A DNA stretch of 64,000 nt from Anaerolineales bacterium (GTDB lineage: Bacteria; Chloroflexota; Anaerolineae; Anaerolineales; UBA11579). Below, one piece after another: positions 7,832 through 56,488 of this stretch (positions are counted from its first letter, which is position 1; each line of letters begins with the position of its first letter). The notes beneath the pieces were generated by a model. The model was not told the DNA's origin. It saw only the letters and a program-made list of their open reading frames with translations, and searched no databases. The stretch covers positions 386,234 to 450,233 of the forward strand of contig JAHCIJ010000002.1 of NCBI GenBank assembly GCA_026129255.1, given 5' to 3'. The position numbers were made by a program, and so were the translations under genes.

Positions 7832-8994
7832 GATACAGCTTATCCATGCTTTTGTCTTTGGTTTTGTTGACGGGATGTTCTCATAATATAGATTCTCCGC
7901 CTATGCTCGAAGTCGACGCGACAATAATAAGCCCCGCGGGGCAGCTTGAACCTTCAAGTACTCCGGCGCAGTTGCTAGCCGGGATTGAAGAAAGATGCTT
8001 GTGGCTCTCAGATCTTCCCATCCCTAGGCTATATGGTTCGCTTGTATATGATCGCTACGAATTATTTAGTGACGAATATGGTATTAGCATCCGAGACCTG
8101 AGAACCGACCGAGACTTCTTTGTTAAGGATTCGCGGTGGGCTTATGTATCTCCTAATCGAGAACTCATTGCATTTGAAATGATCGGTGACACCACTCTTG
8201 TCACTGACAAATTTGCTCACGTATTACAGAGTATTCCTCAAAGTAGGTATGCCGGCATACCAGTTAATGGCTGGATAAACAATGAAACTTTGGGTTTGGC
8301 GATTTATCCCAATAACTCTTTGAGAATATGGAACTGGCACGATCGTGAGTATCAAGAACTCTCGCGCGGAGAATTTCGTGACTTTGCTTCCATCGATCCG
8401 CAATGGACATTCGCCGTAAATTCAGACCTAAGCTTATTTGCCTATTCTAGTCAGGAGAACGGAACAACTTCTCTCGTAGTTTGGGATGATGTGCTAAAGA
8501 CTGAGATCGCGCGAATTCTGTATCCATCAAGAACTCTCCCCCCGATATGGTCTCCTGACGGTGGGCGCCTGCTCTTTTCTGCTGAGCTTAACGACTCGAC
8601 ACCTGACTTTCAATCAGGGGATCTGTTTTTTGTTACCAAGGATGGAGAAATAAACCGTTTAACTCAATTTGAGGACTCCTTGGCTTTTTTACAGTATGCT
8701 CCCGCGTGGTCTCCCAGCGGAGAAGCAGTTGCTTTTCTCTTCCGAAGTTCTCTTGATCAGCTTGAAGATGTAGGAGTCGTAGAAGTTGCGAAACAGAATG
8801 TTGTTCGCTATTGCACGGGGAGTTTTGGCCAATTCCTTGGCCCACCGCCTATCTGGTCGCCTGATGGTCAGTACATAATTATCCATCTGCAGAGCAACGG
8901 TTTTAGGCCATTTCTTGTTAACGTTGATTCTGGTGAAACGTGGCCTTTGCTAGAGGAGGGCGCTACCGTGCACGGATGGGTCGCAGGTGAGTAG
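7828..8994 (+). CDS. Exported PD40/TolB-like beta-propeller lipoprotein, candidate immunity protein for the main RHS tip
   Basis: The ATG at 7828 overlaps the RHS stop (ATGA). Lipobox 'LLSLVLLTGCSH'. Repeated 'WSPDGGRLLFSA', 'WSPSGEAVAFLF', 'WSPDGQYIIIHL'. The DNA is visibly AT-richer. Confidence 0.75.
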   Translation: MRYSLSMLLSLVLLTGCSHNIDSPPMLEVDATIISPAGQLEPSSTPAQLLAGIEERCLWLSDLPIPRLYGSLVYDRYELFSDEYGISIRDLRTDRDFFVKDSRWAYVSPNRELIAFEMIGDTTLVTDKFAHVLQSIPQSRYAGIPVNGWINNETLGLAIYPNNSLRIWNWHDREYQELSRGEFRDFASIDPQWTFAVNSDLSLFAYSSQENGTTSLVVWDDVLKTEIARILYPSRTLPPIWSPDGGRLLFSAELNDSTPDFQSGDLFFVTKDGEINRLTQFEDSLAFLQYAPAWSPSGEAVAFLFRSSLDQLEDVGVVEVAKQNVVRYCTGSFGQFLGPPPIWSPDGQYIIIHLQSNGFRPFLVNVDSGETWPLLEEGATVHGWVAGE

Positions 8995-10504
8995 GCTGGC
9001 TCCTGGGAGTGGACATGTCGATGGAAATGTACTCTGGTCATCAGGTGATATCGAGTTGTGCCTAGGTTCTGGGTGGTGGCTTTGCTTGCAGCCGGGCTGG
9101 CATGATGGGTTGTACTATTATGAAAATGTACAGCCGCACGCCGTGACACTGGTTGAACGCGGCGAGGATGAGGAGACATACGAGTACGATGCCAATGGCA
9201 ACATGATCGGCTGGACTGAAGGTGAAGAGGAGTGGGAGCTAGTTTACAACGCAGAAAATCGACTTTCGTCACTCAGTGACGGCACGGATACATGGAGCTT
9301 CACTTATGACGGTGACGGCAGACGGGTCAGACAAGTTGGCCCTATGGGGGAGGTAACACATTATGTAGGAGGTGCGTACGAAGTGCGCGACGCGGCCGGC
9401 GATGCCGAAGTACTCAAATACTACGGCATTGCCGGCCAGCGCGTGGCCATGGGGGATAGTGAGGGAATTAAGTACTTACTAACAGACCACTTAGGCTCGG
9501 TGAGTGCTGTATTGGACGATACTGGAGCCATGCTGAGCCAGCAGCGCTATACGCCTTATGGTGTGCCACGCTTTGAAGTAGGTATTACCGAGACAGACTT
9601 TGGTTATACCGGACAGCGAATGCTTACAGGCACTGGCTTGATGGATTACAACGCGCGCTTCTATGCGCCGGGTCTAGGGCGGTGGACACAGCCCGACAGC
9701 ATTGTGCCAAGTATTGGAGACCCACAGAATCTAAACCGATTTACTTACGTACTCAATAGTCCTCTTAACTTCATTGACCCGAGTGGGCGCTGTGCGTCAG
9801 GAATCATTCTGGACAGTCAGTGTTTGGCGTTTCATGCTCCAGGCTTGCGTTATAGGCCAGAAAATCAAGGTGCGTGCGCTGGTCAGATTTGTCCGCCGGC
9901 GCGAACAGATACTATGTCTCCGCCTCTGGATATTCCGTTAGTAGTAGGTGGAAATGATTGGCTAACAAAGCGTACGAATACAGATCCGGGTCATATTGGA
10001 GTGGATTATTCTGGAACACCCGGTATACCTGTTCGTTCATTAGGGAATGGCATTGTTGCAACATCTAGCGGATGCACATATTATATGGAGTACAACTGCG
10101 ACTACTATCACATTGAACTAGAAAAGAGAATAACAACACAGTCAAATCAAGGTTATGGTCATGTGGTTGTAATTGAGTATCCATATGGATCATTAAATCC
10201 CACTGTCATAACTGCCTTAGATATTCAGCCTGGCTATTCGTTATATGCGCTATCTGCTCATTTGTTGGACGCCCCGGTTGTGAACTCAGGTGACCCGGTC
10301 GAAGTGGGCGAAGTTATAGGACTTTTAGGCTCTAGTGGGTATTCTTCCGGACCACATTTGCACTTTGAACTTCGACAAGGCCCGACTGGTTATGTTAAGT
10401 CACTGGATTTTTACGGCTATTTATGGTTTGGCCTTCCACCAATTAATCCTCACTTGCTAGAACCGCTATACGGCATTAATCTAGGAAAGGGGATTGGGCA
10501 GTGA
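8987..10504 (+). CDS. Orphan RHS cassette: RHS core fused to an M23 (LytM-type) metallopeptidase tip
   Basis: RHS core 'LQPGWHDGLYYYENVQPHAVT...NFIDPSGRCASG', then M23 motifs 'GHIGVDYSG' (HxxxD) and 'GPHLHFELR' (HxH). The only in-frame start is GTG 8987, which overlaps the upstream stop. Confidence 0.8.
   Translation: MSRLAPGSGHVDGNVLWSSGDIELCLGSGWWLCLQPGWHDGLYYYENVQPHAVTLVERGEDEETYEYDANGNMIGWTEGEEEWELVYNAENRLSSLSDGTDTWSFTYDGDGRRVRQVGPMGEVTHYVGGAYEVRDAAGDAEVLKYYGIAGQRVAMGDSEGIKYLLTDHLGSVSAVLDDTGAMLSQQRYTPYGVPRFEVGITETDFGYTGQRMLTGTGLMDYNARFYAPGLGRWTQPDSIVPSIGDPQNLNRFTYVLNSPLNFIDPSGRCASGIILDSQCLAFHAPGLRYRPENQGACAGQICPPARTDTMSPPLDIPLVVGGNDWLTKRTNTDPGHIGVDYSGTPGIPVRSLGNGIVATSSGCTYYMEYNCDYYHIELEKRITTQSNQGYGHVVVIEYPYGSLNPTVITALDIQPGYSLYALSAHLLDAPVVNSGDPVEVGEVIGLLGSSGYSSGPHLHFELRQGPTGYVKSLDFYGYLWFGLPPINPHLLEPLYGINLGKGIGQ
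9086..9790 (+). repeat. RHS-core recombination module, copy B
   Basis: DNA-level colinearity with 6415-7125. The same conserved blocks appear in the same order, through the DPSG[HR]C[PA]SG junction. Confidence 0.9.
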
Positions 10505-11736
10505 TGAACCTGTTTCGGGTTTTTGTCGTCGCGGCAATTCTTGTAGGGTGTTCAAATTTTGGAGAAACGGAACTCCCGGTTTCCTCAATTGAGACTCCTA
10601 TGATTACAGTCCCGACCAAGACCGTATCAGCCTACCCCGGATTTGCTTATAGCACTAAAGTTCCCTTTGAGGCAAAAGGCAGTTTAATTGCTGTACTCCA
10701 TGATGGAGTGACGGTCTTGGATATTGCTGGGGGACTTATTAAAAGTTTTCCGTTACCTGAAAATTGTTCTCCATTTGTTGTTCCGCAATCTACTGAGTTT
10801 GTTTGTAAAGTGGGTGAAGACTTTATTATGTATGACGCTCTCTCTGGAGTAGAAAAACCCTTGGACGACCTTGAGGCTGACTGGATTAGCGCGACTAAAA
10901 ATGGAAAATTCCTTTTTTATGGCTATCAAACAGAGAAACTGGTAGTGGGGGTTATTGATACTAGCAGTGGCGAACACGTTAGTCAGGGACAGATTGATAT
11001 TTCTGAAGTCTATTCTGGCCCATGGAGTAGGCTTCCATACGGATCATTGACGTTGTCGCCCGACGGCAAATACTTTGCATTCTTAGCACACAGTAATAGT
11101 TTAAATATTGCAGATGTTGTCATCGTTAGCGCCATCGACTATAGTTTGATCGCTGTAGAGAATATGCCCGCTATTCAGGATTCGGGAGCGGGCCTGGCTT
11201 GGTCGTATGATGGGCGATACCTCCTTTATGGTTCTCAAGAATCAGCTTTTGCCCCGGAGATTTGGGCTGATGAACAATATCTTTTTGAAGTTGCAGACTC
11301 CCGAGCAGCATTTGTGCGTGAACTTCAGTTGGATCTTGCCGTGGACGAATTCTGGAGTAATCGCTGGTGGATACCCGGAGATTTGATCCCCCCAGGAAAC
11401 AACTTTTTAGCTGACGTTTGGTCGCCTGATAATGAACACCTTGTGCTTTCCTTTTCACGCTCTGATGAGAGCAATGGAGTTCAATATATACTGCAGGGTT
11501 TCTGTATAACCAAGATTATTGGTGAAAGAAACCTTTGCAAAGATATTGTTTCACAGACGGCAATTGATACATACTATTCTATTGACTCTCTGGGCTGGTC
11601 ACCCCGGGGGGATTTTGTTTATTTCGTCGCGAGGGGTTCAAGGGACACCGATGTTTTTATTTATAGCATTGAAAGAGACGAGTTTTTTCTAATACTTTCC
11701 GAATCGGGCATTGTAAGTGTTGAATGGATACCATAA
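10501..11736 (+). CDS. Exported PD40-like beta-propeller lipoprotein, candidate immunity protein for the M23 tip
   Basis: The start (GTG 10501 / ATG 10504) overlaps the upstream stop TGA. Lipobox 'AAILVGCSN'. Repeats 'LSPDGKYFAFLA', 'WSYDGRYLLYGS', 'WSPDNEHLVLSF', 'WSPRGDFVYFVA'. Confidence 0.75.
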   Translation: MMNLFRVFVVAAILVGCSNFGETELPVSSIETPMITVPTKTVSAYPGFAYSTKVPFEAKGSLIAVLHDGVTVLDIAGGLIKSFPLPENCSPFVVPQSTEFVCKVGEDFIMYDALSGVEKPLDDLEADWISATKNGKFLFYGYQTEKLVVGVIDTSSGEHVSQGQIDISEVYSGPWSRLPYGSLTLSPDGKYFAFLAHSNSLNIADVVIVSAIDYSLIAVENMPAIQDSGAGLAWSYDGRYLLYGSQESAFAPEIWADEQYLFEVADSRAAFVRELQLDLAVDEFWSNRWWIPGDLIPPGNNFLADVWSPDNEHLVLSFSRSDESNGVQYILQGFCITKIIGERNLCKDIVSQTAIDTYYSIDSLGWSPRGDFVYFVARGSRDTDVFIYSIERDEFFLILSESGIVSVEWIP

Positions 11737-23755: not shown

Positions 23756-23814
23756 TTGCAGGATGGGTGGTGTCCCCTAAGGGACACCACCCATCTTTCA
23801 CTGCGAAATGTTGC

Positions 23815-29432: not shown

Positions 29433-29444
29433 GTGTCCTTAAGC

Positions 29445-29475
29445 AAAAGAGCGGGGCATTGCGCCCCGCTCTTTT
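29445..29475. terminator. Bidirectional hairpin terminator
   Basis: AAAAGAGCGGGGC-ATT-GCGCCCCGCTCTTTT, with A-tract and T-tract flanks. Downstream of the minus-strand gene 29501..29848. Confidence 0.7.
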
Positions 29476-29500
29476 GTATAAATGCGAAGCTAATGAAACG

Positions 29501-37519: not shown

Positions 37520-37597
37520 GGTATCTAGCTCAGTCTACAAGAATCACATGCTGGCTGCCGCGCAGGCGCGGCAGCCAGCATGGTGGTCCTCAGTAGC

Positions 37598-40225: not shown

Positions 40226-40338
40226 GTCATTCCGAGGAGTGTGCTGCGTAACAACGCCGACGAGGAATCCTTTAGGGCATTCGAAAACCAGGTTGATTTT
40301 TCTTGCCCTAAAGGATTCCTCGCTTCGCTCGGAATGAC
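40226..40338. repeat. MITE-like inverted pair of the GTCATTCCGA...GAGGAATCCTTTAGGGCA unit
   Basis: GTCATTCCGAGG...GAGGAATCCTTTAGGGCA - 23 nt - TGCCCTAAAGGATTCCTC...CGGAATGAC. Confidence 0.85.
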
Positions 40339-43645: not shown

Positions 43646-43718
43646 TGCGTCCAGAAGGATTCGAACCCTCAACCTACTGATCCGAAGTCAGTTGCTCTAT
43701 CCGTTGAGCTATGGACGC
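43646..43718 (-). tRNA. tRNA-Arg (anticodon TCG)
   Basis: The reverse complement GCGTCCATAGCTCAACGGATAGAGCAACTGACTTCGGATCAGTAGGTTGAGGGTTCGAATCCTTCTGGACGCA folds as a cloverleaf. Acceptor GCGTCCA/TGGACGC, anticodon loop CT-TCG-GA, T-loop TTCGAAT. Confidence 0.9.
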
Positions 43719-43779
43719 CTGTAGGGAATTATACATCGCGGGTGACAGGAGTTTCGTCGGCGTGCGGAATAGCAACGCT

Positions 43780-43809
43780 TTGTACAGGAAAGGATTTTCA
43801 AATTACAAT
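43780..43809 (+). promoter_or_regulatory. Possible promoter for the WXG-like gene pair
   Basis: TTGTAC - 18 nt - TACAAT, about 20 nt upstream of the ATG at 43830. Confidence 0.3.
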
Positions 43810-43829
43810 TTGAAGCAAGAGGGACACAT

Positions 43830-44795
43830 ATGGGCGTAATTTATGTTAATCCATCTGCTTTAGATGATTCAGCTCAAAAACTGCAGTATTCTGGCAGCTA
43901 TCTTGGGCAAGCGTCACTCATACTAAGTGCTCAGTCGGCGTCCGCGCCAAGCTACGAAGGTCAATTTGGGCCATGGGTAGGTTCAATTGCTGCTGAGGCA
44001 CGTGGACAAGCAAAAAATATAGAAAAAGCAGTGGCTGAACTCGCTGTAAGAGTTGCTCGAAAATCTGCACAGTTTCGTGAAGTCGATGGTCAAGCTGCCT
44101 CTCAGTTGATGTTGATGTGTAATGCCGCACAAGAATTGGAAAATGGCGATTCGAGTGTGATGGGTTGGCCCACATTGTTGTCAAGCACCAACCATCTACT
44201 GTGGGCACCCTTGCTTGCAGGGCTAGGACTTCCCTTCTTGGCTCCGTTTCTTCTTACAACTGTAACTATGGGGCCGGGCCAGGAAATTAATCTGGAACGA
44301 GATAGTAAGGGTGTAACAAAGGCAGAATTTAAACAGCAAATATATGAGACTAATCTCTTCGGAGGTGAAGACGGAGCCGTCGCTACTAAGTGGGGAGGCT
44401 ATAAAGGTAGCTATGCTTTCGGAAAATTCGCCGCAGGCGTTGCTGCTGAAACCCCTGGGAATCTTGGGCCATATGTAGAATTCTCTACAGTTAAATTTGA
44501 AGGTAGTGTTGCTCGCGGCACCCGAGAATTTGGAGGTGCCTTGGGGGGTGAGGTTAAACTTGCTTCTGCAGAAGCCATGCTCGGCGCTCGTGATGGCTCG
44601 TTTGGGGGCAAAATTGGTGTCAATGTTGCCTCAGTTGAAGGGACAGCTGGTATGAATCTCGCTGGCAATTATGTAGGTGCCACAGCAGAGATTGGTCTTA
44701 AGTGGGAGCTAGGATTCTCGATTGGGGAGACTACGAAGATTGATTTTGGGCCGTTTTCAGTTGGTATTAGGATTAGTGAGGCAATTGGACTCTGA
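43830..44795 (+). CDS. WXG100/LXG-like N-terminal domain protein with a central hydrophobic segment and a Gly-rich C-terminal domain
   Basis: 'VIYVNPSALDDSAQKL...YEGQFGPWV...AVAELAVRVARKSAQFREVDGQAASQL' parallels the ESAT-6/YukE layout (IxVxPxxL..A, WxG-like turn, C-terminal helix). Then 'LLWAPLLAGLGLPFLAPFLL' and Gly-rich repeats. Confidence 0.55.
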   Translation: MGVIYVNPSALDDSAQKLQYSGSYLGQASLILSAQSASAPSYEGQFGPWVGSIAAEARGQAKNIEKAVAELAVRVARKSAQFREVDGQAASQLMLMCNAAQELENGDSSVMGWPTLLSSTNHLLWAPLLAGLGLPFLAPFLLTTVTMGPGQEINLERDSKGVTKAEFKQQIYETNLFGGEDGAVATKWGGYKGSYAFGKFAAGVAAETPGNLGPYVEFSTVKFEGSVARGTREFGGALGGEVKLASAEAMLGARDGSFGGKIGVNVASVEGTAGMNLAGNYVGATAEIGLKWELGFSIGETTKIDFGPFSVGIRISEAIGL

Positions 44796-45595
44796 TGAGC
44801 GTAGTCAAGCAATCACTTGTTGTTCCTCATAGCGCTATGGTTGCCATGCTACACCACTATGGAAAGAGCGGTTTTGTTGGTGTGCGCTTTAGCGAGTTTC
44901 AAGAAGACCAAGGGCTGGCAGTTGAGGTGGGAAAAGGCATACAGGTGTTAAAACAAATGGGTTGGGCGACGTCTACTTCTCCTCTTGTTTTGGATGCAGT
45001 CTTTGAGACAACAATTCGTTCCTTGCTGTTCCGTCAGCTTGCCTTGCTCGTTGTTTTGATGGAGAGAGGTTCCACTTATTCCCTGAGCTTCAATAGAAAT
45101 GTAGAAGAATATGAAGAATATATTGAACACTATGTGAACAAAGAAGGCAGTCATGTGCTTACTCGACACACAGGCTATCAAGAGGTAATTTCACGTGTCG
45201 CTGATCTGATTCCTCTAGAGCCAGTTATCCGCGAGGAGCGGCCGACAATTGCGTTGGAGACGGGATTCGTGTCGGAACTTGTTGAGTTGCCGAGGAACGA
45301 TAGTTCCTTGCAGAAGGTGGCACAGATGTTGAGCAGCTATACAAAGGACGAAGAGCTTGTTTCCAGACTTTCTAGGGCTTTACTATCTCCTGTATTTACG
45401 GCTTCGGTCGCATTGATTGAGCTTGAAGGAGATGAGGCTTCACAAGCTTCATCATTCACAGTTTTTGCTGATGAAAACTCCGCCTGGGGGATTTGGCCCA
45501 AGAGTTTAGAGCCGCCAATGGTTTGGGTCATGCCCTCCGATGTGAATGATGTCAAGTCCTGTTTGACAGATTGGTTTCAGCAACGCGTTAGCTAA
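44795..45595 (+). CDS. Cytoplasmic partner protein (immunity or EspG-like chaperone candidate)
   Basis: The ATG overlaps the upstream TGA (TGATG). No TM segments. The tail 'FTVFADENSAWGIWPKSLEPPMVWVMPSDVNDV' loosely recalls the EspG-family C-terminus. This is from memory only. Confidence 0.4.
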   Translation: MSVVKQSLVVPHSAMVAMLHHYGKSGFVGVRFSEFQEDQGLAVEVGKGIQVLKQMGWATSTSPLVLDAVFETTIRSLLFRQLALLVVLMERGSTYSLSFNRNVEEYEEYIEHYVNKEGSHVLTRHTGYQEVISRVADLIPLEPVIREERPTIALETGFVSELVELPRNDSSLQKVAQMLSSYTKDEELVSRLSRALLSPVFTASVALIELEGDEASQASSFTVFADENSAWGIWPKSLEPPMVWVMPSDVNDVKSCLTDWFQQRVS

Positions 45596-47778: not shown

Positions 47779-47882
47779 CCTCTAAAGGATCTCTCCTCAC
47801 CGCTGTGCGGCTCGTTCGGGATGACACTAAACCAACACTGTCATTCCGACCGAGCGAAGTGAGGGAGGAATCCTTTAGGGCA
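47779..47882. repeat. MITE-like inverted pair (same unit family as 40226-40338)
   Basis: CCTCTAAAGGATCTCTCCTC...GGGATGACA - 11 nt - CTGTCATTCCGACCGAGCGAAGTGAGGGAGGAATCCTTTAGGGCA. Confidence 0.8.
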
Positions 47883-47941
47883 AAAAAAGACTCTCTATTG
47901 TCAAAAGGCGTTCTGATTATTCAACGCGAGGAATAGCGCAC

Positions 47942-48994: not shown

Positions 48995-49184
48995 CCTCGC
49001 TTACTTGGGTAACATTTCACAAATAGACCACTGCCGATCTCAAAAATCCACTACATCAGCGAAAACAGATTATCACCCAGAGTGTTAAATTCGCTCACCA
49101 AAGCGAAAATAAGGGTTAAGCCCCTCATCTAGATTATTGAGAGGGCTGTGCATACACTCGCTCCGTACTTAAAAGGAGTTGTGT

Positions 49185-50147
49185 GTGCGAAAACCAATGA
49201 TTGTCCTCATGCTGGCCGCGCTGCTGGCAGCATGTGCCCCCGTAATTGTGCCGCGTGAGCCGGTAGACCCCAACGCCGCGGGCGCCATCACCATCCCCCA
49301 TACGATGGGTGAGGCGGTGCTGCCCGGCCCCGCGCTGCGCGTCGTCGCCCTCGAGTGGACCTATGTCGAGAACCTGCTGGCGCTCGGCATCCAGCCCGTC
49401 GGCGTGGCCGACATTGACGGTTTCAACACCTGGGTCAATGTACCCGCCGAGCTCGGGCCGGAGGTTGTCGATGTTGGCATGCGCAGCGAGCCCGATTTTG
49501 AGACCCTGGCCGCGCTGCAGCCCGATCTCATCATCGATACGCAGATCACCGCCACCGAATACTACACCCAGCTGGACGCCATTGCGCCCACGCTGATCCT
49601 CAACCCGTATCCCTCTGACCCAGCCATCTCCACCTTCCAGGAGATGCAAGACAGCTTCCGCCTGCTCGGTGTGGCCACTGGCCGTAGCGAGCAAGCCGAG
49701 CAGGTGCTGGCGGAGTTGGACGCCAAGATCGCCGAGGGCCGCGCCGCCATCACGGCCAGCGGCCACGCTGGCGATGGCTTTGTGCTGGCACAGATGTCCT
49801 CCTGGCTCAATACGGCCTACCTGCGCTTCTTCATTGATAACGGTATGGCGACGAATATCGTCGAGCAGCTCGGCATCGAGAATGCCTGGCAGACCGACTT
49901 TGCCCAGTATGGCTTCATGGAAGTCGGCACCGAAGCGCTCACCGAGCTTGGCGATGTGTACTTTTTCTATGTCATGCAAGATGATGATGGCCTGAACAAC
50001 TCGGGCTCCTTCCAGAAGCTGTGGCAGAGCCTGCCCTTCGTGCAGGCGGGCAAGGCGCACGGTATCGGCGGCGACACTTGGCTGTTCGGCGGCCCACTCT
50101 CCGCTGGCGTGTTGGTGGAGCGCGTCGTCGACGCCGTTACTGAGTAG
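49185..50147 (+). CDS. Iron-siderophore-type ABC substrate-binding lipoprotein
   Basis: GTG 49185 follows AAGGAG. Lipobox 'LAALLAAC'. 'RVVALEWTYVENLLALGIQPVGVAD' is typical of class-8 binding proteins. Confidence 0.8.
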   Translation: MRKPMIVLMLAALLAACAPVIVPREPVDPNAAGAITIPHTMGEAVLPGPALRVVALEWTYVENLLALGIQPVGVADIDGFNTWVNVPAELGPEVVDVGMRSEPDFETLAALQPDLIIDTQITATEYYTQLDAIAPTLILNPYPSDPAISTFQEMQDSFRLLGVATGRSEQAEQVLAELDAKIAEGRAAITASGHAGDGFVLAQMSSWLNTAYLRFFIDNGMATNIVEQLGIENAWQTDFAQYGFMEVGTEALTELGDVYFFYVMQDDDGLNNSGSFQKLWQSLPFVQAGKAHGIGGDTWLFGGPLSAGVLVERVVDAVTE

Positions 50148-50151
50148 CGCC

Positions 50152-51003
50152 TTGGAACACCCCATCCAACAAACCCTTGCAGCCCTGGCAGCTGCGAACG
50201 AGCAACATAGTTCGCAGCTGCTGGTGGCGCGTGATGCGCAGCCCGGCTGGCTGAGTGCCAGCCAGCTGCAGGAATCTGCTCACCTGGCGCCACTGCTCAA
50301 GGCCAACGGCGAGCACCACAAGGCCAGCGATGCGCAGTCCCCGGCCGCCTTGTGGTTCGGGCACTATGTGTTCAACATCATGGCCGTGGCCGTCACCTGT
50401 TACCTGGCTGCCAAACGCGTGCCAGACCTGCGCCCCGGCTCGGTTGCGCTACGCTTCGATGAAGACGGCGAGCCTGTCGCCATTGCCTGGGAGGGGCGCC
50501 AGTTCGCCGCTCTCAGCAGCGACCCGGCCGCCGCGCACCCAGACTGCACACCGCTGCCGGATTTGGATGCCTTGCGCCTGCATCTTACCCGCCAACTGGA
50601 AGCGCATTGCAGCACCATCATCACCGCTCTGCGCCATAACTCGCGTATCGGCGTGGCGGGCTTGTGGCTGCTGGCGCGTGATTATTACGGCTCGGCCTTC
50701 ACCTGGGTGGGCGAGGAAATGGGTAATGTGCAGCTGGGTTTGGAAGAAGCGCGCGCCGCCGCGGCGTTGCCAACGCAGTTGGCGCGGCAGCGTGACTTTG
50801 TGTGCGTGGAGCACGCCGGGCTGAGCTACCAGCTCATCGATCGCGTTTCGTGCTGCCTGTATTACAAGACCGATGAGGGCCACTACTGCTCCAATTGCCC
50901 ACACCGCCCCATGCCCGAACGCATCGCCCTCATCGAGACCTGGCTGGGGAAGCGCGCTGCGGCAGCACAAGCCGCAGCGGCCCAGCCTGAAGCCAGCGAA
51001 TGA
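50152..51003 (+). CDS. FhuF-like siderophore-iron reductase (2Fe-2S)
   Basis: The C-terminal 'CCLYYKTDEGHYCSNCP' is the Cys-Cys-x10-Cys-x2-Cys FhuF motif. Confidence 0.75.
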   Translation: MEHPIQQTLAALAAANEQHSSQLLVARDAQPGWLSASQLQESAHLAPLLKANGEHHKASDAQSPAALWFGHYVFNIMAVAVTCYLAAKRVPDLRPGSVALRFDEDGEPVAIAWEGRQFAALSSDPAAAHPDCTPLPDLDALRLHLTRQLEAHCSTIITALRHNSRIGVAGLWLLARDYYGSAFTWVGEEMGNVQLGLEEARAAAALPTQLARQRDFVCVEHAGLSYQLIDRVSCCLYYKTDEGHYCSNCPHRPMPERIALIETWLGKRAAAAQAAAAQPEASE

Positions 51004-52052
51004 GCACCGCACAGCTTTCCAAGCCTACGGGCACGCCAGCCGCGCCGCCTTCAGGCCGCGGTACCGTTGCACGTGTGCTGGGCTTCCCGCTGCTGGCTGC
51101 GCTGCTGCTATTGGTGCTGGTTGCCAGCACCGCCTTCGGCGCCGCCGACATTGAGCCAGGCGTGGTGGCTGAATCTGTCACCCATTTTGACGACACCAAT
51201 ACCGATCATCTCGTCATTCGCAGCTTGCGCATGCCGCGTGCCATCACCGCCGCCCTGGTGGGGGCGGCGCTGGCCGCGGCGGGCGCCATCATGCAGGGGC
51301 TGACGCGCAACCCGCTGGCTGATTCCGGCTTGCTGGGCATCGAGGCCGGCGCGGCGCTGGCCGTCATGGTGGCAGTGCTGTTCCTCAACATCCACTCCCT
51401 ATCAGGCTTTGCGGTATTTGCTTTCGTCGGCGCTGGCGTGAGCGGGGCGCTGGTGTACGCCATCGGCTCGATGGGCCGCGGCGGCCCTACGCCCATCAAG
51501 CTCACCATTGCGGGCGCGGCCCTGGCCACCCTGTTCGCCTCGGTTACCAGCTTGCTGGCCATCCTGCACCCGCTCAGTTACAACCAGGTGCGCTTTTGGA
51601 TGGCGGGCAGCGTGGCGGGCCGTGAGCTGGAGCTTATCGCCCAGGGTGCGGTCTACATCCTGGTGGGCCTGAGCCTGGCCATCCTGCTCGGCCGCCAGAT
51701 CACCACTCTCTCGCTGGGCGAGGATCTGGCACGCGGCCTCGGCCTCAATGTGCTGTGGGTCAAACTATTGGCGGCGCTGGCCGTGGTGGTGCTGGCGGGC
51801 ACATCGGTGGCGCTGGCCGGGCCGGTGGGCTTTGTGGGTCTGGTGGCGCCGCACGCCGTGCGTTTCTTTGTGGGCCTGGATTACCGCTGGATCATTCCCT
51901 ATGGCGCGCTGCTCGGCGCCATCTTCATGGTGCTGGCCGATGTGGTCGGCCGGGTGGTCTTGCGCCCGATGGAGCTGCCGGTCGGCATCATGACTGCCGC
52001 AATCGGTGGGCCGATCTTCATCTATTTGGTGCGCGCCAAGGTGAAACGCTAA
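51000..52052 (+). CDS. FecCD-family iron-siderophore ABC permease
   Basis: 'LRMPRAITAALVGAALAAAGAIMQGLTRNPLADSGLLGI'. Confidence 0.9.
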   Translation: MSTAQLSKPTGTPAAPPSGRGTVARVLGFPLLAALLLLVLVASTAFGAADIEPGVVAESVTHFDDTNTDHLVIRSLRMPRAITAALVGAALAAAGAIMQGLTRNPLADSGLLGIEAGAALAVMVAVLFLNIHSLSGFAVFAFVGAGVSGALVYAIGSMGRGGPTPIKLTIAGAALATLFASVTSLLAILHPLSYNQVRFWMAGSVAGRELELIAQGAVYILVGLSLAILLGRQITTLSLGEDLARGLGLNVLWVKLLAALAVVVLAGTSVALAGPVGFVGLVAPHAVRFFVGLDYRWIIPYGALLGAIFMVLADVVGRVVLRPMELPVGIMTAAIGGPIFIYLVRAKVKR

Positions 52053-52053
52053 C

Positions 52054-53100
52054 ATGGCTCAGTGGATCGTGCTGCGTTCGCGGCGCTTGCCCTTCTCGTT
52101 CCGCCTGGATGGCCGCCTGCCGGGTGTGATCCTTGGCCTAGTACTGGTGAGCCTGGCGGCCATGGTGATCAATATGGGTGTGGGCGAGTTTAAGATCGCC
52201 CCGCTGGATGTGTTGCGTACGCTGTTCGGTGTGGATACTGGCGTGCCCCAGCACACTTTCGTGGTCATGAACCTGCGCCTGCCGCGCATGCTGCTCGCCT
52301 GGCTGGTTGGCGCCGCACTGGCCGTGTCTGGCAACATCGTACAGGGTGTGACGCGCAATCCGCTAGCCTCGCCTGACCTCACCGGCGTCACTGCTGGCGC
52401 CAGCCTGGCAGCCGTCTTCTTCATTGTGGCTGTGCCGGGTTTGCCGCGTAACCTGCTGCCCGTGATGGCTTTCCTCGGGGCGCTCGCCGTGGCGGTACTG
52501 CTCTATATCCTGGCCTGGCGCAAGGGCGATTCGCCCATGCGCTTCATTCTGGTGGGCATCGGTCTGCAGGCGACGCTTAGCGCGGTCATTGGCTTTGAGC
52601 TCACCTTCGGCCGCATTGACCTGGTGACCCAGGCGATGATGTGGCTGGCGGGCACAGTGTACGCCAGCACTTGGGCCGAAGTGAATTCTGTGCTGCCGTG
52701 GATCGGCGGCGGCTTGCTGGTGGCGGTGCTGCTGGCGCGCCACCTGAATGCGCTCAACCTGGGAGAAGAGGTGGCCCGCGGCCTGGGCACACAGGTCACC
52801 CGCCAGCGCGCCGTGCTGCTGCTTGTGGCGGTCGCCCTGGCGGGCGTCACCGTCACCGTGGCAGGCACGATCGGCTTTGTGGGCCTGGTGGCCCCGCACC
52901 TGGCGCGCCGCCTGGTGGGGCCGATGCACGAGGGCTCGCAGATGGTGGCGGCGCTGGTAGGCGGTGCGCTGGTGATCGTGTCTGACCTGATCGGGCGCAC
53001 GGTCATTGCCCCGGCCGAGATCCCCTGCGGCATCATCATTGCCTTGCTCGGGGCGCCCTTCTTCCTTTACTTGATCTGGCAAAACCGTGAGAGGTTCTAA
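52054..53100 (+). CDS. FecCD-family iron-siderophore ABC permease
   Basis: '[39 protein letters not shown]'. Confidence 0.9.
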
Positions 53101-53102
53101 CG

Positions 53103-53885
53103 ATGCAAACATTCCACGCTGAGCAACTTTCCCTGGGTTATACAGCCGAGCACATTATTGATGCCCTGGATCTACAACTCCCGGTGGGCAAGGTGACCGC
53201 CCTGGTTGGCCCTAACGGCTGCGGCAAGTCCACGCTGTTGCGCGGCCTGGCGCGGTTGCTCAAGCCGCAGGGGGGGGCGGTGCTGCTGGATGGCGCCGCC
53301 ATCCACAGCCTGCCCACCAAGCAGCTGGCGCGCGAGATCGGCATTCTGCCGCAATCGCCCGTGGCGCCCGAGGGGCTGACGGTGCGCGAGCTGGTGGCAC
53401 AGGGCCGCTACCCGCACCAGCACTGGTTCCAGCAATGGAGCGCCGAAGATGAGCAGGCTCTGCACAGCGCGCTGCAGCTCACCAAGCTGGAGTCGCTGGC
53501 CGAGCGCGGCGTGGACACACTGTCCGGCGGCCAGCGCCAGCGCGCCTGGATCGCCATGACCCTGGCGCAGGAGACCAACACCATCCTGCTGGATGAGCCC
53601 ACCACGTTCCTCGACCTGGCTCACCAGCTGGAAGTGCTGGAGTTGGTGCAGCACCTCAACCAGCAGGGCAAGACGATCATCCTGGTCTTGCATGACCTCA
53701 ATCATGCGGCCCGCTGCGCCCAGCACATTGTGGCCCTGCACCGCGGCCAGGTGATCGCTGAAGGCGCGCCGCAGGATGTGATCGTGGAGGATGTGGTGCG
53801 CCGCGTGTTTGGGGTGGAGAGCCAGATCCTGCGCAACCCGGTCACCGGGCAGCCCATGTGCTTGCCGATTCGGTTGGCGCAGTAG
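53103..53885 (+). CDS. Iron-siderophore ABC transporter ATP-binding protein
   Basis: Walker A 'GPNGCGKST', signature 'LSGGQRQR', Walker B 'ILLDEPT'. Confidence 0.9.
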
Positions 53886-53942
53886 GCGAACGGGGTCACC
53901 CGCCTATAAGGAACGCAATATCGGTAGGCCGAGTAAAAAATT

Positions 53943-54800
53943 AGTGGGTGTTTTTGCAATGCCCTAAAGGATTCCTCACCACTCGCTGCGCTCGGGTTCG
54001 GAATGACAGTTTGCTGCAGTAGAGTAGTTGGCAGGGGCGGGGTTACCCGTTATCAGCCAGTGGTGAGTTCTAACCAGCTAGTATGACGTCAATTCAGAAT
54101 CGTGTAGGGGCGGGTCTAAGACCCGCCCCTACCAAGTCAGTGGTGAATTCTAGCCAACTGGCATGACGTCAATTTCGAATCGCGCAGGGCGCAGCATGCT
54201 ACGCTGCTTCGCAGCGTACGCCCAGTGCCTTCAATATTGAATTTATGCCAGCTGGTATGACGCCAATTCAGAATCGCGTAGGGGCGGGTCTAAGACCCGC
54301 CCCTACCAAGTCAGTGGTGAGTTCCAGCCAACTGGCATGATGTCTAATAGGGAATCATGTAAGGCGCAGCATGTTACGCTACCTCGCAGCGTACGCCCCA
54401 GTGCCTTCAATGCTGAATTCATGCCAACTGGCATGACGTCAATTCAGAATCGCGTAGGGGCGGGTCTTAGACCCGCCCCTACTACGCCAGTGGTGAATTC
54501 TGGCCAGCTGGCATGGCGTCTACTAGGAAATCATGTGGGGCGTAGCATGCTACGCTGCTTCGCAGCGGACGCCCCAGCGCCTTCAATGTTGAATTCCAGC
54601 CAGCAGGCATGACGTCAATTCAGATCGCGTAGGGGCGGGTCTAAGACCCGCCCCTACCAAGCCAGTGGTGAGTTCTAGCCAACTGGCATGAGGTCAATTC
54701 AGAAATCGCGTAGGACAGCGTCATCCGCTCTTATACAGCAGCGTCATTCCGAAGCGGCGAAGCCGCGAGGAATCCTTTAGGGCATTACAAACACTCACTA
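53943..54800. repeat. Composite inverted-repeat-bounded element enclosing a ~175-bp x ~4 tandem array of two alternating hairpins
   Basis: Left arm TGCCCTAAAGGATTCCTC...GGAATGACA (53960-54008). Right arm GTCATTCCGA...GAGGAATCCTTTAGGGCA (54743-54784). Hairpin 1, GTAGGGGCGGGTCTAAGACCCGCCCCTAC, starts at 54104, 54278, 54454 and 54629. Hairpin 2, GGGCG..TACGCTGC-TTC-GCAGCGTACGCCC, starts at 54187, 54363 and 54537. Confidence 0.9.
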
Positions 54801-54863
54801 GGTTGCCCAAGCTTTCTGCCGCTGAAAAGCACAGCGGTTCCTGCGTTAATGGATTTGTTCTGA

Positions 54864-56393
54864 TTAGTTATCGCGCGAAGGCAGCGTGTAGTAGTTGTAC
54901 ACCGCTTCGCTCAGGTCAGAAAAGATGGCCGAGATGGGGTCAAAGATCAACTGCACCGGCTGGTAGAACGTGATCACCAGCACATAATCGCCACTGGGGC
55001 TGAACACGATGCCTGCGTCACTCATTACATTGATCACCTGCGTATTGGGGTTGGTCACCCAGCCGTGCTTGTGCGCCAGGCGCGTGCCTTCGGGCACGCC
55101 GGCTTCCAGCAGGATGCCGATGCGGTTCTGGCTCAGGATGTTCAGCATCTCCTGGCACTCGCCTTGCGTGATCTGGTCTGGGAACACCGCCCGCAGCGCG
55201 CCGCCGCCATCTTCGGCACATTGATAAATGTCCGAGAGCAGCATGCCCATGTCCGTGGGCGTGGTCTGGTTGTACGGGTCTGGGTCGGTGTTCACGTCGC
55301 CGCGCTGGCTGGCGGGTGTGGTGTAGCGTTCCAGCAGCGGAGCGCCCAGGTAGAAATATCCGGCCAGGAAGGTGTTGTTGAGCCCCAGCTGGTGCATATC
55401 TTCGGTCACGCTGATCGGGGCGCGCGGCCCGCCGATCACTTCGCTCATCAGCGCATCCGTGGCTTCGTTCAAAGATTGGGCGATCATCTCGCGGAACAGC
55501 TCTTGCACGCGGGCATCCGGCTGGCTGTCCAGGTTCTTGAACGAGGACACCAGCACGGGGATCTTCATCAGGCTGGCTGCTGTGAAAGAGATGTCCGGCT
55601 GGGTGGGCAAGTTGCTGCCCAGGCGGTAAATGAAGTGCAGCTCCTGGCCGGTGGAGAGGTCTTGGAAATAAATGTCGGCAATGCCGTCGTAGCCCGCTAC
55701 TTCCATGATCTGCTGCATCTGCACCTGCAGGTTTTGCAGATTGGGCCGTGCGGTGGCGGATTGCTGGATGGTGAGGCTGACGCCGCGCTCGGCAGGCGAG
55801 AACAGCGCGGCTTCGATCTGGCTGATCGCACTTTCCATGTTGATGGTGGTGCCCGGTTCGCCGAGCTGAAACTGGGTCGTGCCCGCAATGGGTTGGGCCG
55901 GGCTGGGAGCTTTGTCGTAGCGTGCTGAGATCTCGCCTTGTAGGTAGCGCAGCAGCAAGCCTTCAGAGTAGGTGGCATCCAACGGCACTTCGATCGGGTT
56001 GGAGACATTGCCCCACAAATAATCCCAGAAGCCGCCCCAGAACGGGGAGCTGGTGCGCTGCTGGTCTGCCGCGGCGATCATGCCTTCAAGATTCAGGCGG
56101 AACTCCACCGCTGCAGGGTCCATGTGGATGAGGGCATCCCCATAGCGCAGCTCCACCGGCAGGTTGTAGATGCGCAACAGGCGTTCGGCGGCCTCCTGGC
56201 GGCTGATGCCGCCCATCGGGATGCCAGCCACCACCAGCCCGGCAGGGAAGTTGGCGCGGTCACGGCTGTAAAGGATGAGCTGCACGATCAGAAGAACGAG
56301 GGTGCCGATCAGCAGGACGCTGGCAGCCAGGCGCATAAATGAAGAGCGCGGACGTACGTAGAAACTCATGGCAACGAAGCGCGAGTATATCAT
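54864..56393 (-). CDS. Membrane-anchored serine hydrolase (class A beta-lactamase-related fold) with an N-terminal extra domain
   Basis: TM 'LAASVLLIGTLVLLIVQLILY'. SxxK motif 'FTAASLMKIPV'. 'HKHGW' is KTG-like. The start is ambiguous (56447, 56393 or 56369). Confidence 0.7.
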   Translation of the reverse strand: MIYSRFVAMSFYVRPRSSFMRLAASVLLIGTLVLLIVQLILYSRDRANFPAGLVVAGIPMGGISRQEAAERLLRIYNLPVELRYGDALIHMDPAAVEFRLNLEGMIAAADQQRTSSPFWGGFWDYLWGNVSNPIEVPLDATYSEGLLLRYLQGEISARYDKAPSPAQPIAGTTQFQLGEPGTTINMESAISQIEAALFSPAERGVSLTIQQSATARPNLQNLQVQMQQIMEVAGYDGIADIYFQDLSTGQELHFIYRLGSNLPTQPDISFTAASLMKIPVLVSSFKNLDSQPDARVQELFREMIAQSLNEATDALMSEVIGGPRAPISVTEDMHQLGLNNTFLAGYFYLGAPLLERYTTPASQRGDVNTDPDPYNQTTPTDMGMLLSDIYQCAEDGGGALRAVFPDQITQGECQEMLNILSQNRIGILLEAGVPEGTRLAHKHGWVTNPNTQVINVMSDAGIVFSPSGDYVLVITFYQPVQLIFDPISAIFSDLSEAVYNYYTLPSRDN

Positions 56394-56488
56394 CCGCGTG
56401 TGCGTGTTAGAATCGCCCGCATTAGGGCTGTATGAATGCGCAAGCAACTACCGCCCGCGTCCATCCACTACCCAAACAACTCAACCCT

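Follow-up and report, generated by a model that had tools for sequence, protein, structure and literature searches.

The element at positions 53943 to 54800 of the window (the whole 64-kb stretch of Anaerolineales DNA that was analysed) is probably a BIME-2-like cluster of GTAG-type REP elements that was amplified locally inside a REPIN-like doublet. With similar confidence, it is regarded as the Anaerolineales counterpart of the BIME-2 arrays of Escherichia coli, that is, as a mosaic cluster of REP-type palindromes. The element is real but is fairly ordinary repetitive non-coding DNA. It occupies a gap of 978 nt that contains a 176-nt tandem repeat (3.6 copies) and a bounding inverted repeat. 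The genes on either side were confirmed to be convergent, with an ABC ATPase upstream (plus strand, 3' end at 53885) and a serine hydrolase downstream (minus strand, 3' end at 54864).

Architecture of the array and its arms

Tandem Repeats Finder placed the array at 54074 to 54695 with a period of 176 nt, 3.6 copies, and 87% matches, in agreement with the tandem array of about 175 bp described in the original prediction. The 176-nt unit was found by module alignment to be a dimer of two diverged copies of one module of approximately 88 nt, each consisting of a GC-rich hairpin and a linker of approximately 52 nt. The array has eight modules in all, one of which, at 54025 to 54103, is decayed. 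The two modules originally proposed do alternate, but the unit is corrected to this dimer of a single module. The order is A1 B1 A2 B2 A3 B3 A4, with two alternating linker types, and the module motifs are regularly spaced at approximately 88 nt. The hairpins that serve as building blocks belong to the GTAGGGGC...GCCCCTAC family. The linker corresponds to the predicted common core of about 50 nt, for which the repeat-family search and the module alignment gave 7 to 8 occurrences in the array. All linkers and all hairpin 2 copies are in direct orientation throughout, while hairpin 1 is symmetric and has no defined orientation.

The features of the element are given here in order and lie on the plus strand unless stated otherwise. 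The left arm (53943 to 54007) is a unit of a second hairpin family, GTTTTTGCAATGCCCTAAAGGATTCCTC...CGGAATGAC, and was recognized from its inverted repeat with 54743 to 54800. Its inner extension, AGTTTGCTGCAGTAGAG (54008 to 54024), was read directly and is partly complementary to 54728 to 54742. In the decayed first module, the hairpin is reduced to the remnant GGCAGGGGCGGGGTTACCCG; the linker after it is complete and was recovered both by module alignment and by the linker HMM (match at 54055 to 54102, E = 2.7e-8). The first copy of hairpin 1, the perfect 29-bp palindrome GTAGGGGCGGGTCTAAGACCCGCCCCTAC (54104 to 54132, strand undefined), was assigned by pattern match and folding, and the first copy of hairpin 2 (54187 to 54224) by its inverted-repeat pair and folding. 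These are followed by linker A1 (54133 to 54186) and by linker B1 (54225 to 54277), respectively, both assigned by module alignment and HMM; linker B1 has an imperfect hairpin of its own. The second 176-nt unit (54278 to 54453) is composed of hairpin 1 (54278 to 54306), linker A2, hairpin 2 (approximately 54361 to 54400), and linker B2, while the third unit (54454 to 54628) comprises hairpin 1 with a central T (54454 to 54482), linker A3, hairpin 2 (54537 to 54576), and linker B3. The last module (54629 to 54709) contains the fourth copy of hairpin 1 (54629 to 54657) and linker A4. At the array end (54710 to 54742), direct reading and alignment gave a truncated GTAGG, then GTCATCCG, a fragment resembling a partial shell half, and then the inner arm CTCTTATACAGCAGC. 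The right arm, GTCATTCCGAAGCGGCGAAGCCGCGAGGAATCCTTTAGGGCATTACAAACACTCACT (54743 to 54800, minus strand), is an inverted unit of the second family and pairs with the left arm.

Hairpin 1, GTAGGGGCGGGTCTNAGACCCGCCCCTAC, is a 29-bp palindrome with a stem of 13 to 14 bp. Its four copies were located at the predicted starts of 54104, 54278, 54454, and 54629 (spacing 174, 176, and 175 nt), and shuffled versions of the window gave no match. It folds at −16 kcal/mol as single-stranded DNA, and GTAG is present at the 5' end of both strands but is paired with CTAC. Across the four copies, 1 of 29 columns was variable in hairpin 1 versus 21 of 54 in the linkers (Fisher p = 4.6e-4); the linkers have diverged by 12 to 22% while hairpin 1 stays identical. 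Within the 64-kb window hairpin 1 was found solely in the array, and a high copy number in the source genome is therefore unproven. Hairpin 2, at about 54187, 54362, and 54537 and thus where it was expected, is about 38 nt long and reads GGGCG, an 8-nt bulge, TACGCTGC-TTC-GCAGCGTA, and CGCCC, overlapping the alternative palindrome GCGCAGCATGCTACGC. A stretch of linker B2 (54412 to 54448) that is equivalent to the hairpin of linker B1 folds at −9.6 kcal/mol (z = −4.2). Folding of the whole 861 nt as DNA was uninformative, as the repeats merely pair among themselves.

The ends of the element are an inverted repeat in which 53950 to 53977 pairs with 54767 to 54794 (28 nt, 93% complementary). This confirms the predicted bounds, and the half units were placed at 53960 to 54007 and 54743 to 54779. 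For the right arm, folding gave a GAA-capped stem at −8.3 kcal/mol. An intact doublet of the same shell family at 47780 to 47885 (strand undefined) is REPIN-like, with inverted halves 14 nt apart, and is compact and palindromic over approximately 106 nt (−27.5 kcal/mol, z = −7.2). Two inverted units around a short spacer were likewise found at the same site in the relative L122 (spacer of 32 nt) and in locus L131 (8794 to 8901), while at 53943 to 54800 the doublet is split by approximately 735 nt. A further pair, at 40226 to 40338 between converging genes (strand undefined), has the opposite, head-to-head order, and the halves are therefore deduced to be independent units rather than parts of a fixed shell. 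The claim that the same halves recur around a short spacer was thus borne out at 47780 to 47885 but not at 40226 to 40338.

The same site in relatives and hairpin 1 in other genomes

The site was shown to be highly plastic among close relatives. In the following, percentages denote the identity of the neighbouring hydrolase to that of the window. In L122 (92%), the 260-nt gap contains a nearly identical left half, the 32-nt spacer, and a right half, with no array. In L124 (88%), the 107-nt gap contains one hairpin-plus-linker module and no shell. One shell half running up to the contig end was present in L121 (89%), and neither shell nor array module was found at the site in L125 and L120 (both 91%). 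A pattern scan of L123 (81%), where the neighbouring gene is different and the gap is 124 nt, found neither element. Presence and absence thus vary among relatives whose hydrolases are 88 to 92% identical, a comparison between relatives rather than between strains of one species. The states of this site form a clean natural series: it may be empty, hold the shell alone, hold a single module, or hold the shell together with eight modules.

Homologues of the linker core, which the original prediction had suggested be sought in other genomes, were found in L124 and in the Anaerolineales MAG ACE_CHL7. In the latter, hairpin 1 and a homologous linker precede GTAGGAGCGCAGCATGCTGCGCCCCTAC and a further linker, and modules and shell halves also occur in combination, including a module flanked by halves in direct repeat. 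Matches of the linker HMM were confined to its source sequences (the window and the L124 and ACE_CHL7 loci), with no new copies in approximately 130 loci. Two degenerate linker patterns had no match in the metagenome collection; since the second is present in the JGI contig L124, the collection evidently lacks these genomes. Similar arrays with two alternating GTAG hairpins were found in other Chloroflexota. In a Dehalococcoidia MAG, hairpin 1 alternates with GTAGGGGCGAATAATCATTCGCCCC four to five times with two unrelated linkers, and further arrays elsewhere have periods of 48, 51, 76, 127, and 179 nt.

Hairpin 1 is a dispersed, discrete unit that is not special to this locus. At least 119 loci carry it, in MAGs that belong to Chloroflexota, Acidobacteriota, Pseudomonadota, and other phyla, versus a chance expectation of approximately 3e-4 by our own estimate (26 fixed bases, 596 Gb). 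By record title, roughly 70 of the matches listed are from Chloroflexota, 22 from Acidobacteriota, and 15 from Pseudomonadota, with a few from Gemmatimonadota, Deinococcota, Planctomycetota, and others; at least 14 of the listed loci come from one Chloroflexia MAG (our own count). The identical 29-mer spans at least six phyla. All of these loci (at least 119) are MAG derived, and because their contigs reach 3.7 Mb, binning error is an unlikely cause of the cross-phylum spread. The membership of hairpin 1 in a very widespread family of GTAG-headed, REP-like palindromes had been missed in the original prediction. The outer stem GTAGGGGC/GCCCCTAC is common to hairpins with different palindromic interiors.

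In 126 copies, the flanks of hairpin 1 were unrelated between loci, complementarity ended exactly at GTAG/CTAC, and no target-site duplication was seen. A test for insertion into pre-existing palindromes gave no flank complementarity in these copies. A total of 82 of the 126 copies lie outside greedily picked ORFs, which make up 87% of the loci; most are intergenic and beside unrelated housekeeping genes. Gene contexts, by crude ORF calling, were tandem for 41, convergent for 18, and divergent for 9. The 148 neighbouring ORFs fall into 172 Pfam families, of which none was enriched, and no transposase family recurred among them. Among viral contigs, hairpin 1 had only two matches and the linker had none, and phages therefore do not stand out as a vector. 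Searching the literature for the sequence strings of hairpin 1 and of the shell yielded nothing but unrelated papers on eukaryotes.

Mechanism and alternative readings

Y1 HUH transposase (RAYT) is the known agent for GTAG REPs. A phmmer search with E. coli RayT covered 5675 ORFs, drawn from the window and from 125 loci (the window plus about 1 Mb of hairpin-bearing loci), and gave no RAYT or Y1 transposase match at E ≤ 10; RAYT as the mobilizing enzyme is therefore unsupported here. For a BIME-2-like cluster, the modules and doublets may have reached gene-distal intergenic sites by a hairpin-directed process acting on single-strand DNA. Their copy number would then rise and fall by replication slippage or by unequal recombination between the direct repeats. 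Repeat expansion or a recombination hotspot was the best fitting of the roles suggested originally. The identity of hairpin 1 may be held by selection or by sequence-specific re-homogenization while the linkers drift. Any cellular effects would be by-products of strong hairpins. Read-through from either converging gene could yield stable RNA 3'-end structures that shield the upstream mRNA, and such structures would hinder antisense read-through. As DNA, the hairpins are putative cruciform or protein-binding sites, as in reports on BIMEs.

A broader proposal, which we consider unlikely, is that hairpin 1 could be a substrate of a widespread, sequence-specific DNA-hairpin machinery. This is suggested by its sharp bounds, its occurrence in at least six phyla, and its invariance among drifted linkers. 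The putative machinery would be something other than a classical RAYT flanked by REPs, as no such gene appeared close to the hairpin 1 loci (at least 119). It might, again at low probability, insert and re-homogenize hairpin 1 and build hairpin-plus-linker arrays. It is equally doubtful that the Anaerolineales module and the GNA-capped shell hairpins are lineage-specific passengers of this machinery.

The original prediction described a MITE-like shell with the array as cargo. As a single composite MITE, the halves would be terminal inverted repeats bound by a transposase and the array would move along with them in a single transposable unit; this reading is slightly less probable still. The 28-nt inverted repeat at the bounds fits it, as do the compact palindromic elements of approximately 106 nt that the halves form at 47780 to 47885, in L122, and in L131. 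The shell without an array in L122 also upholds that part of the claim in which the array is an insertion or expansion between inverted halves. However, the halves behave as separate units, being head-to-head at 40226 to 40338 and direct repeats around the ACE_CHL7 module, and the L124 module has no shell at all. No second copy of the shell-plus-array composite was found in the window, the fetched loci, or the metagenome scans. Furthermore, no target-site duplication was evident at 53943/54800, where direct reading gave no direct repeat at the ends, and an ORF/Pfam scan found no IS or transposase gene in the window region examined near the element. The ORFs scanned over approximately 36 to 64 kb of the window were housekeeping genes or had no Pfam match, and no plasmid matched the region in a BLASTN search.

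A selected DNA platform, on which a nucleoid protein, gyrase, or a regulator would be bound by the hairpins and linkers and supercoiling between the converging transcription units would be organized, is about as improbable as the composite MITE. It is compatible with a BIME-2-like cluster rather than exclusive of it. The converging-gene position is where positive supercoils accumulate, and the motif spacing of approximately 88 nt is regular. By analogy, a binding role may be supported by reports that BIME-2 arrays are gyrase targets and that BIME-1 binds IHF (summarized in PMC3333891 and PMC2817692). Of the 8 linkers in the array, however, 4 have mutations in the TGACGTCA palindrome, the candidate binding site, and the distant homologues lack this palindrome. 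Relatives that have the same two genes here (L122 and L124) also do without the array.

Still less probable is a set of tandem structured ncRNA genes, or one long structured RNA, transcribed from the spacer. Folding of each 176-nt unit gave four hairpins whichever strand was used (z-scores of −4.6 and −5.8), and the far better conservation of hairpin 1 than of the linkers could also be taken in its favour. The original prediction had held that substitutions between copies keep the pairing. In fact, CTAAG/CTTAG changes the unpaired centre base, and in hairpin 2 all three stem substitutions break a pair, although, by our own reading, the minus strand would retain two of the three as G-U wobbles. 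No compensatory change was found among the array copies. Across the whole window, Rfam 15 at gathering score gave only a tRNA at 43646 to 43718, and at relaxed E-values the best match in 53850 to 54900 was ≤20 bits, versus gathering scores of 42 to 100. A consensus scan of the element found no sigma-70-like promoter and no intrinsic terminator. Moreover, hairpin 1 occurs by itself, as a 29-bp unit, in phyla and contexts that are unrelated, the element is missing at the same site in L122 and L124, and TGACGTCA is not kept in the ACE_CHL7 homologues. The predicted ncRNA array is thus unsupported.

The element was shown to be non-coding DNA and not a gene: a coding reading was rejected because a period of 176 nt is not divisible by 3 and the lone ORF (91 aa) has no Pfam match, and a CRISPR array was ruled out because the "spacers" between the hairpins are homologous to one another.

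The BIME-2-like reading extends REP/BIME-type mosaic clusters to the Anaerolineales, which have been little studied and are for the most part uncultured. Clusters of this kind disrupt short-read assemblies and give rise to spurious ORFs, and they can be used as strain-typing markers. The cross-phylum spread of the 29-bp palindrome and its invariance within the array raise the question of which enzyme or selection maintains hairpin 1.

Comparison with known repeat systems

Like the MITEs Correia/CREE and Nezha, the element is short and non-coding, is bounded by inverted repeats, and is present or absent at orthologous sites. Unlike them, it has no target-site duplication or parent IS within the region examined, its termini are independent hairpin units, and its interior is a tandem array rather than unique sequence. 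The REPINs of Pseudomonas and enterobacteria are matched by the shell, in which two inverted hairpin units with a short spacer fold into one long hairpin. The shell differs in its sequence family (GTCATTCCGA...GAGGAATCC, with a GNA-capped inner stem) and in having units also in the opposite orientation.

The GTAG-tagged REP superfamily counts Chloroflexi among its hosts (Di Nocera et al. 2013), and the clustered GTAG-23 elements of Thermomicrobium roseum (Chloroflexi) are the comparator within it. By description, the features shared with this superfamily, for which 24 consensus sequences are published, are a palindrome of 20 to 40 bp starting with GTAG, a mostly extragenic location favouring convergent or tandem contexts, and subfamilies with alternative complementary stem interiors. 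In addition, clusters consist of units reiterated in tandem with flanking DNA, and some families lie within longer palindromes. Here, however, GTAG is paired rather than an unpaired tag and an identical 29-mer crosses several phyla; at 13 to 14 bp, the stem lies near the upper limit of reported lengths. As for REPs generally, hairpin 1 (29 bp) and the bulged hairpin 2 (approximately 38 nt) are short stem-loop palindromes, and the position is extragenic and downstream of genes (82 of 126 copies outside ORFs; array between converging genes). No associated RAYT gene (REPtron) turned up in the window or in the 125 loci.

In BIME-2, REPs of two types are arranged with conserved linkers in tandem copies, and strains differ in the number of these copies; in canonical REPs GTAG is unpaired and a stem mismatch is needed by RayT (PMC3333891). 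The array differs from E. coli BIME-2 in the perfect palindrome of hairpin 1, whose GTAG is base-paired, in the lack of any RAYT match across the window and 125 loci, and in showing, by eye, no sequence similarity to Y/Z2 REPs or to the S/s/l/r linkers. Its linkers are approximately 52 nt, whereas those of BIME-2 are short, and it is all head-to-tail, with linkers and hairpin 2 direct, whereas BIME-2 alternates REP with inverted REP. As in the tandem Y/Z2 REP arrays of BIME-2, two types of GTAG-headed palindrome alternate with two conserved linker types, and the dimer is tandemly amplified in an intergenic region. Also as in BIME-2, copies at the same locus resemble each other and the locus differs between relatives.

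Anatomy of the array and its hairpins

The gap between the ABC-transporter ATPase gene (53103-53885, + strand), whose stop codon borders it, and the converging gene for a 527-aa serine hydrolase of the beta-lactamase fold (54864-56447, − strand) measures 978 nt from stop to stop, and no other gap between picked ORFs of the window is longer. A single tandem array was detected within it by Tandem Repeats Finder (54074-54695; period 176, 3.6 copies, 87% matches), and a 28-nt inverted repeat (93%; 53950-53977 versus 54767-54794) encloses the array region. Repeat finding, motif positions and the inverted repeat showed the coordinates, motifs and anatomy of the original prediction to be accurate. 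The tandem array of units of about 175 bp with two alternating hairpins stood with a period of 176, but the unit was redefined, as module alignment showed the 176-nt unit to be a dimer of a single ancestral module, consisting of a GC-rich hairpin beginning (GTA)GGGGCG... and then a linker of ~52 nt. Eight modules are present in all, a decayed one at 54025-54103 followed by A1, B1, A2, B2, A3, B3 and A4, with a truncated GTAGG at 54710 as the last piece; the pairwise identity of whole A and B modules is only 78-88%. The repeat structure is real and well defined, and the element is a head-to-tail tandem amplification of a two-module unit, derived from dispersed hairpin families and centred in an inverted doublet.

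Hairpin 1, carried by the A modules, is the 29-nt palindrome GTAGGGGCGGGTCTAAGACCCGCCCCTAC at 54104, 54278, 54454 (centre base T) and 54629. Only 1 of its 29 columns, the centre base, varies among these four copies, whereas 21 of 54 columns vary in the A-type linkers beside it (Fisher p = 4.6e-4). This steadiness against varying linkers therefore indicates purifying selection or re-homogenisation of hairpin 1.

Hairpin 2, in the B modules, reads GGGCGTACGCTGC-GAA-GCAGCGTA on the − strand, followed by an 8-nt bulge, and is overlapped by an alternative palindrome, GCG(C/T)AGCATGCTACGC. It resembles a chimera of two members of the hairpin superfamily; simple forms occur in relatives as GTAGGAGCGCAGCATGCTGCGCCCCTAC (locus L082) and GGGGTGTACGCTGCGAAGCAGCGTACACCCC (locus L016). 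Substitutions had been said to preserve pairing between copies, which was not upheld: CTAAG/CTTAG is the unpaired centre of a palindrome, and hairpin 2 pairs showed no compensatory change, all three stem substitutions breaking a pair. The B-type linker folds alone into an imperfect hairpin, GAATTCATGCCA-AC-TGGCATG-(ACGTC)-AATTC (−9.6 kcal/mol, z = −4.2), and the A-type linker has no hairpin of its own (z = −0.4). The linker palindrome TGACGTCA is intact in only four of the eight window linkers and is not conserved in the Anaerolineales MAG ACE_CHL7.

Hairpin 1 and related arrays in other genomes

No further copy of hairpin 1 was found elsewhere in the window, and window shuffles gave no match. 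When 185,579 species-representative genomes were scanned with the three central bases free, at least 119 loci (126 copies) matched; by our own estimate, about 3e-4 matches to 26 fixed bases would be expected by chance in 596 Gb. The centre triplet was TCA, TGA, TTA or TAA in 116 of the 126 listed copies, the middle base taking all four values. By record title, the matches listed comprised roughly 70 from Chloroflexota (Anaerolineae, Chloroflexia, Dehalococcoidia and Caldilineae), about 22 from Acidobacteriota and about 15 from Pseudomonadota, with a few from Gemmatimonadota, Deinococcota, Planctomycetota, Zixibacteria and others; many of these loci lie on contigs of 0.2-3.7 Mb.

The flanks of the listed loci differ from one to the next and are unrelated. 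Since flank-to-flank complementarity directly beyond GTAG/CTAC was at chance level (21-33%) and no target-site duplication was found at the listed copies, hairpin 1 was deduced to be a discrete 29-bp unit. A mild bias surrounds these copies, with pyrimidines before the palindrome and purines after it. By crude ORF calling, 82 of the 126 listed copies lie outside ORFs, though ORFs make up 87% of the sampled DNA, and the intergenic copies among the matches listed fall in 41 tandem, 18 convergent and 9 divergent contexts. The 148 ORFs nearest hairpin 1 at these loci matched 172 Pfam families, the commonest being ABC_tran (four times), and no transposase family was recurrent or enriched among them. 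The outer stem GTAGGGGC/GCCCCTAC also holds other palindromic interiors in the listed loci (GCAGCGCGCTGC, GAGGCATGCCTC and GAATAATTATTC); the hairpin 1 group is a superfamily whose members share a conserved foot and differ in their self-complementary interiors. Separately, strong perfect intergenic hairpins of 13-17 bp with sequences outside the GTAG family lie at 23762-23795, 29444-29476 and 37547-37582 in the window, some of them terminator-like (e.g., CAAAAGAGCGGGGC...GCCCCGCTCTTTTG).

Comparable arrangements were found in other genomes. In ACE_CHL7, locus L082 has the order linker, hairpin 1, linker, GCGCAGCATGCTGCGC-type hairpin, linker, its linker being recognisably homologous to that of the window (HMM E = 1.6e-6), and locus L002 has the order hairpin-2-like, linker, hairpin 1, shell half. 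In a Dehalococcoidia MAG (L010, 5395-5870), hairpin 1 and GTAGGGGCGAATAATCATTCGCCCC alternate four to five times over about 450 nt, with two linkers unrelated to those of the window. Arrays of hairpin 1 in other MAGs have periods of 48 (five copies), 51, 76, 127 and 179 nt; that of Ca. Promineofilum glycogenicum (L027, 2225-2463) consists of five copies spaced 48 nt apart, joined by 19-nt linkers that are nearly identical. Because of these arrays, the alternation of two GTAG hairpins, together with two linkers, was concluded to be a recurrent Chloroflexota pattern. Matches to the linker HMM were confined to the sequences from which it was built (the window, its close relative L124 and four ACE_CHL7 loci), and about 130 fetched loci yielded no further copies. 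The remaining interest lies in the same 29-bp palindrome across phyla and its invariance within a diverging array, which together point to some maintaining agent.

The shell family and the orthologous site

The shell, the pair of outer arms at 53943-54007 and 54743-54800, is built from half units of ~65 nt comprising GTTTTTGCAATGCCCTAAAGGATTCCTC, a variable stretch and then CGGAATGAC. Folding and direct reading showed each half to be itself a hairpin, with an ATTCC/GGAAT foot around an inner stem that varies and often carries a GNA triloop as its cap. The unit (GTCATTCCGA...GAGGAATCC) forms a second dispersed hairpin family, occurring in the window also as a compact inverted doublet with a 14-nt spacer at 47780-47885 (−27.5 kcal/mol, z = −7.2) and, at 40226-40338, as two units in the reverse order, head-to-head. 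Related units were found in the comparison loci L121, L122, L130 (7862-7912) and L131 (a doublet, 8794-8901) and in ACE_CHL7, where, in L016, direct repeats of the unit lie on either side of a single hairpin 1 module. Looser matches occur in Acidobacteriota loci, e.g., five in L117. A literature search with the shell sequence string returned nothing relevant. From this recurrence in varied arrangements, the shell was deduced to be a REPIN-like doublet formed by a second family of hairpin repeats rather than a fixed MITE terminus. The proposal of a MITE carrying the array as cargo, for which the enclosing inverted repeat had spoken, therefore lost its support: shell halves recur head-to-head and as direct repeats, no transposase was found near the array, and the Pfam-matched neighbour genes are housekeeping (FhuF, FecCD, ABC ATPase, ferrochelatase, PEPCK, MgtE and cytochrome oxidase).

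Judged by the homologues of its hydrolase, of which the closest are 88-92% identical, the window belongs to Anaerolineales; relatives are given here with the identity of their hydrolase to that of the window. The window carries the shell and eight modules. The gene pair is conserved in L122 (92%; gap 260 nt), where a near-identical left shell half, a 32-nt spacer and a diverged right half are present without the array, and in L124 (88%; gap 107 nt), which has a single module (GTAGGGACGAAGCATGCCTAGCCCCTAC and a recognisable linker) and no shell. Two contigs end within the site: L121 (89%; gap at least 142 nt) has a long shell half beside the hydrolase gene, and L125 (91%; at least 105 nt) has neither shell nor module. 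Neither was present in L120 (91%; 57 nt) or, by pattern scan only, in L123 (81%; 124 nt), both with a different gene pair. The site is a hotspot, occupied independently by a doublet, by a module or by the two together in amplified form. In L122, at 3560-3600 (window + strand orientation), a canonical-looking intrinsic terminator, GAGCGCAG-CATGT-CTGCGCTC followed by TTTCTTATT, was noted; the consensus scan found none in the window spacer.

The ferrochelatase and hydrolase genes, adjacent in L123, are separated in the window by a siderophore-type iron-uptake cluster (49134-53885), which places the array at a synteny junction. The cluster encodes a 343-aa ORF without a Pfam match, an FhuF-like reductase, two FecCD permeases and the ABC ATPase; the array is found at one junction of this indel, with the shell doublet at 47780-47885 immediately past the ferrochelatase gene. 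Elsewhere in the window, 44-11736 encodes an RHS/YD-repeat protein of 2595 aa that contains a Laminin_G_3 domain, followed by ORFs matching PD40, YD-shell/RHS with Peptidase_M23, and beta-propeller; the region resembles an Rhs (polymorphic-toxin) locus that includes an orphan C-terminal module, and GC falls from about 62% to 45-52% across 6-12 kb. A tRNA gene (43646-43718, − strand) adjoins two ORFs without Pfam match (43830-45595) at ~50% GC against a background of ~61%, and 43646-45595 may be a small genomic islet.

Mechanism and comparison with known repeats

The suggestion of a structured ncRNA array was not supported: Rfam gave no match at gathering or relaxed thresholds, the consensus scan found no sigma-70-like promoter or intrinsic terminator in the array spacer, and the hairpin 2 stems showed no compensatory change. 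A CRISPR array was rejected since the inter-hairpin stretches are homologous to one another, and coding since the 176-nt period is not divisible by 3 and the sole array ORF (91 aa) has no Pfam match.

The hairpin units would arrive via a process aimed at single-stranded DNA hairpins. The documented agent for GTAG REPs is the RAYT/TnpA-REP Y1 transposase, which needs GTAG and whose strand transfer in vitro can yield BIME-like tandem copies (PMC3333891). Copy number may then shift via slippage or unequal recombination among the 176-nt direct repeats. This mechanism is weakest at the enzyme step; phmmer with E. coli RayT gave no homologue at E <= 10 among 5675 ORFs drawn from the window together with 125 loci, and E. 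coli RayT requires an unpaired GTAG and a stem mismatch, whereas hairpin 1 has neither. Function, if any, would be that generally proposed for REP/BIME elements, with hairpins at RNA 3' ends stabilising the upstream message and damping antisense read-through where the two genes converge; at the DNA level the array would supply structure or putative binding sites.

The reported phyla of the GTAG-tagged REP superfamily include Chloroflexi, and GTAG-15 dimers sit inserted in long palindromes (PMC3733652). E. coli BIME-2 combines two REP types with conserved linkers in tandem copies whose number differs between strains (PMC3333891). The array appears, by analogy, to work like both, but it is not BIME-2 proper, because it lacks the alternating orientation and, by eye, is unrelated in sequence. 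It fits the REP group incompletely, with a paired GTAG, host copies counted within the 64-kb window and no RAYT among the ORFs searched. The array probably belongs with the REP/BIME kind, extended here to Anaerolineales.
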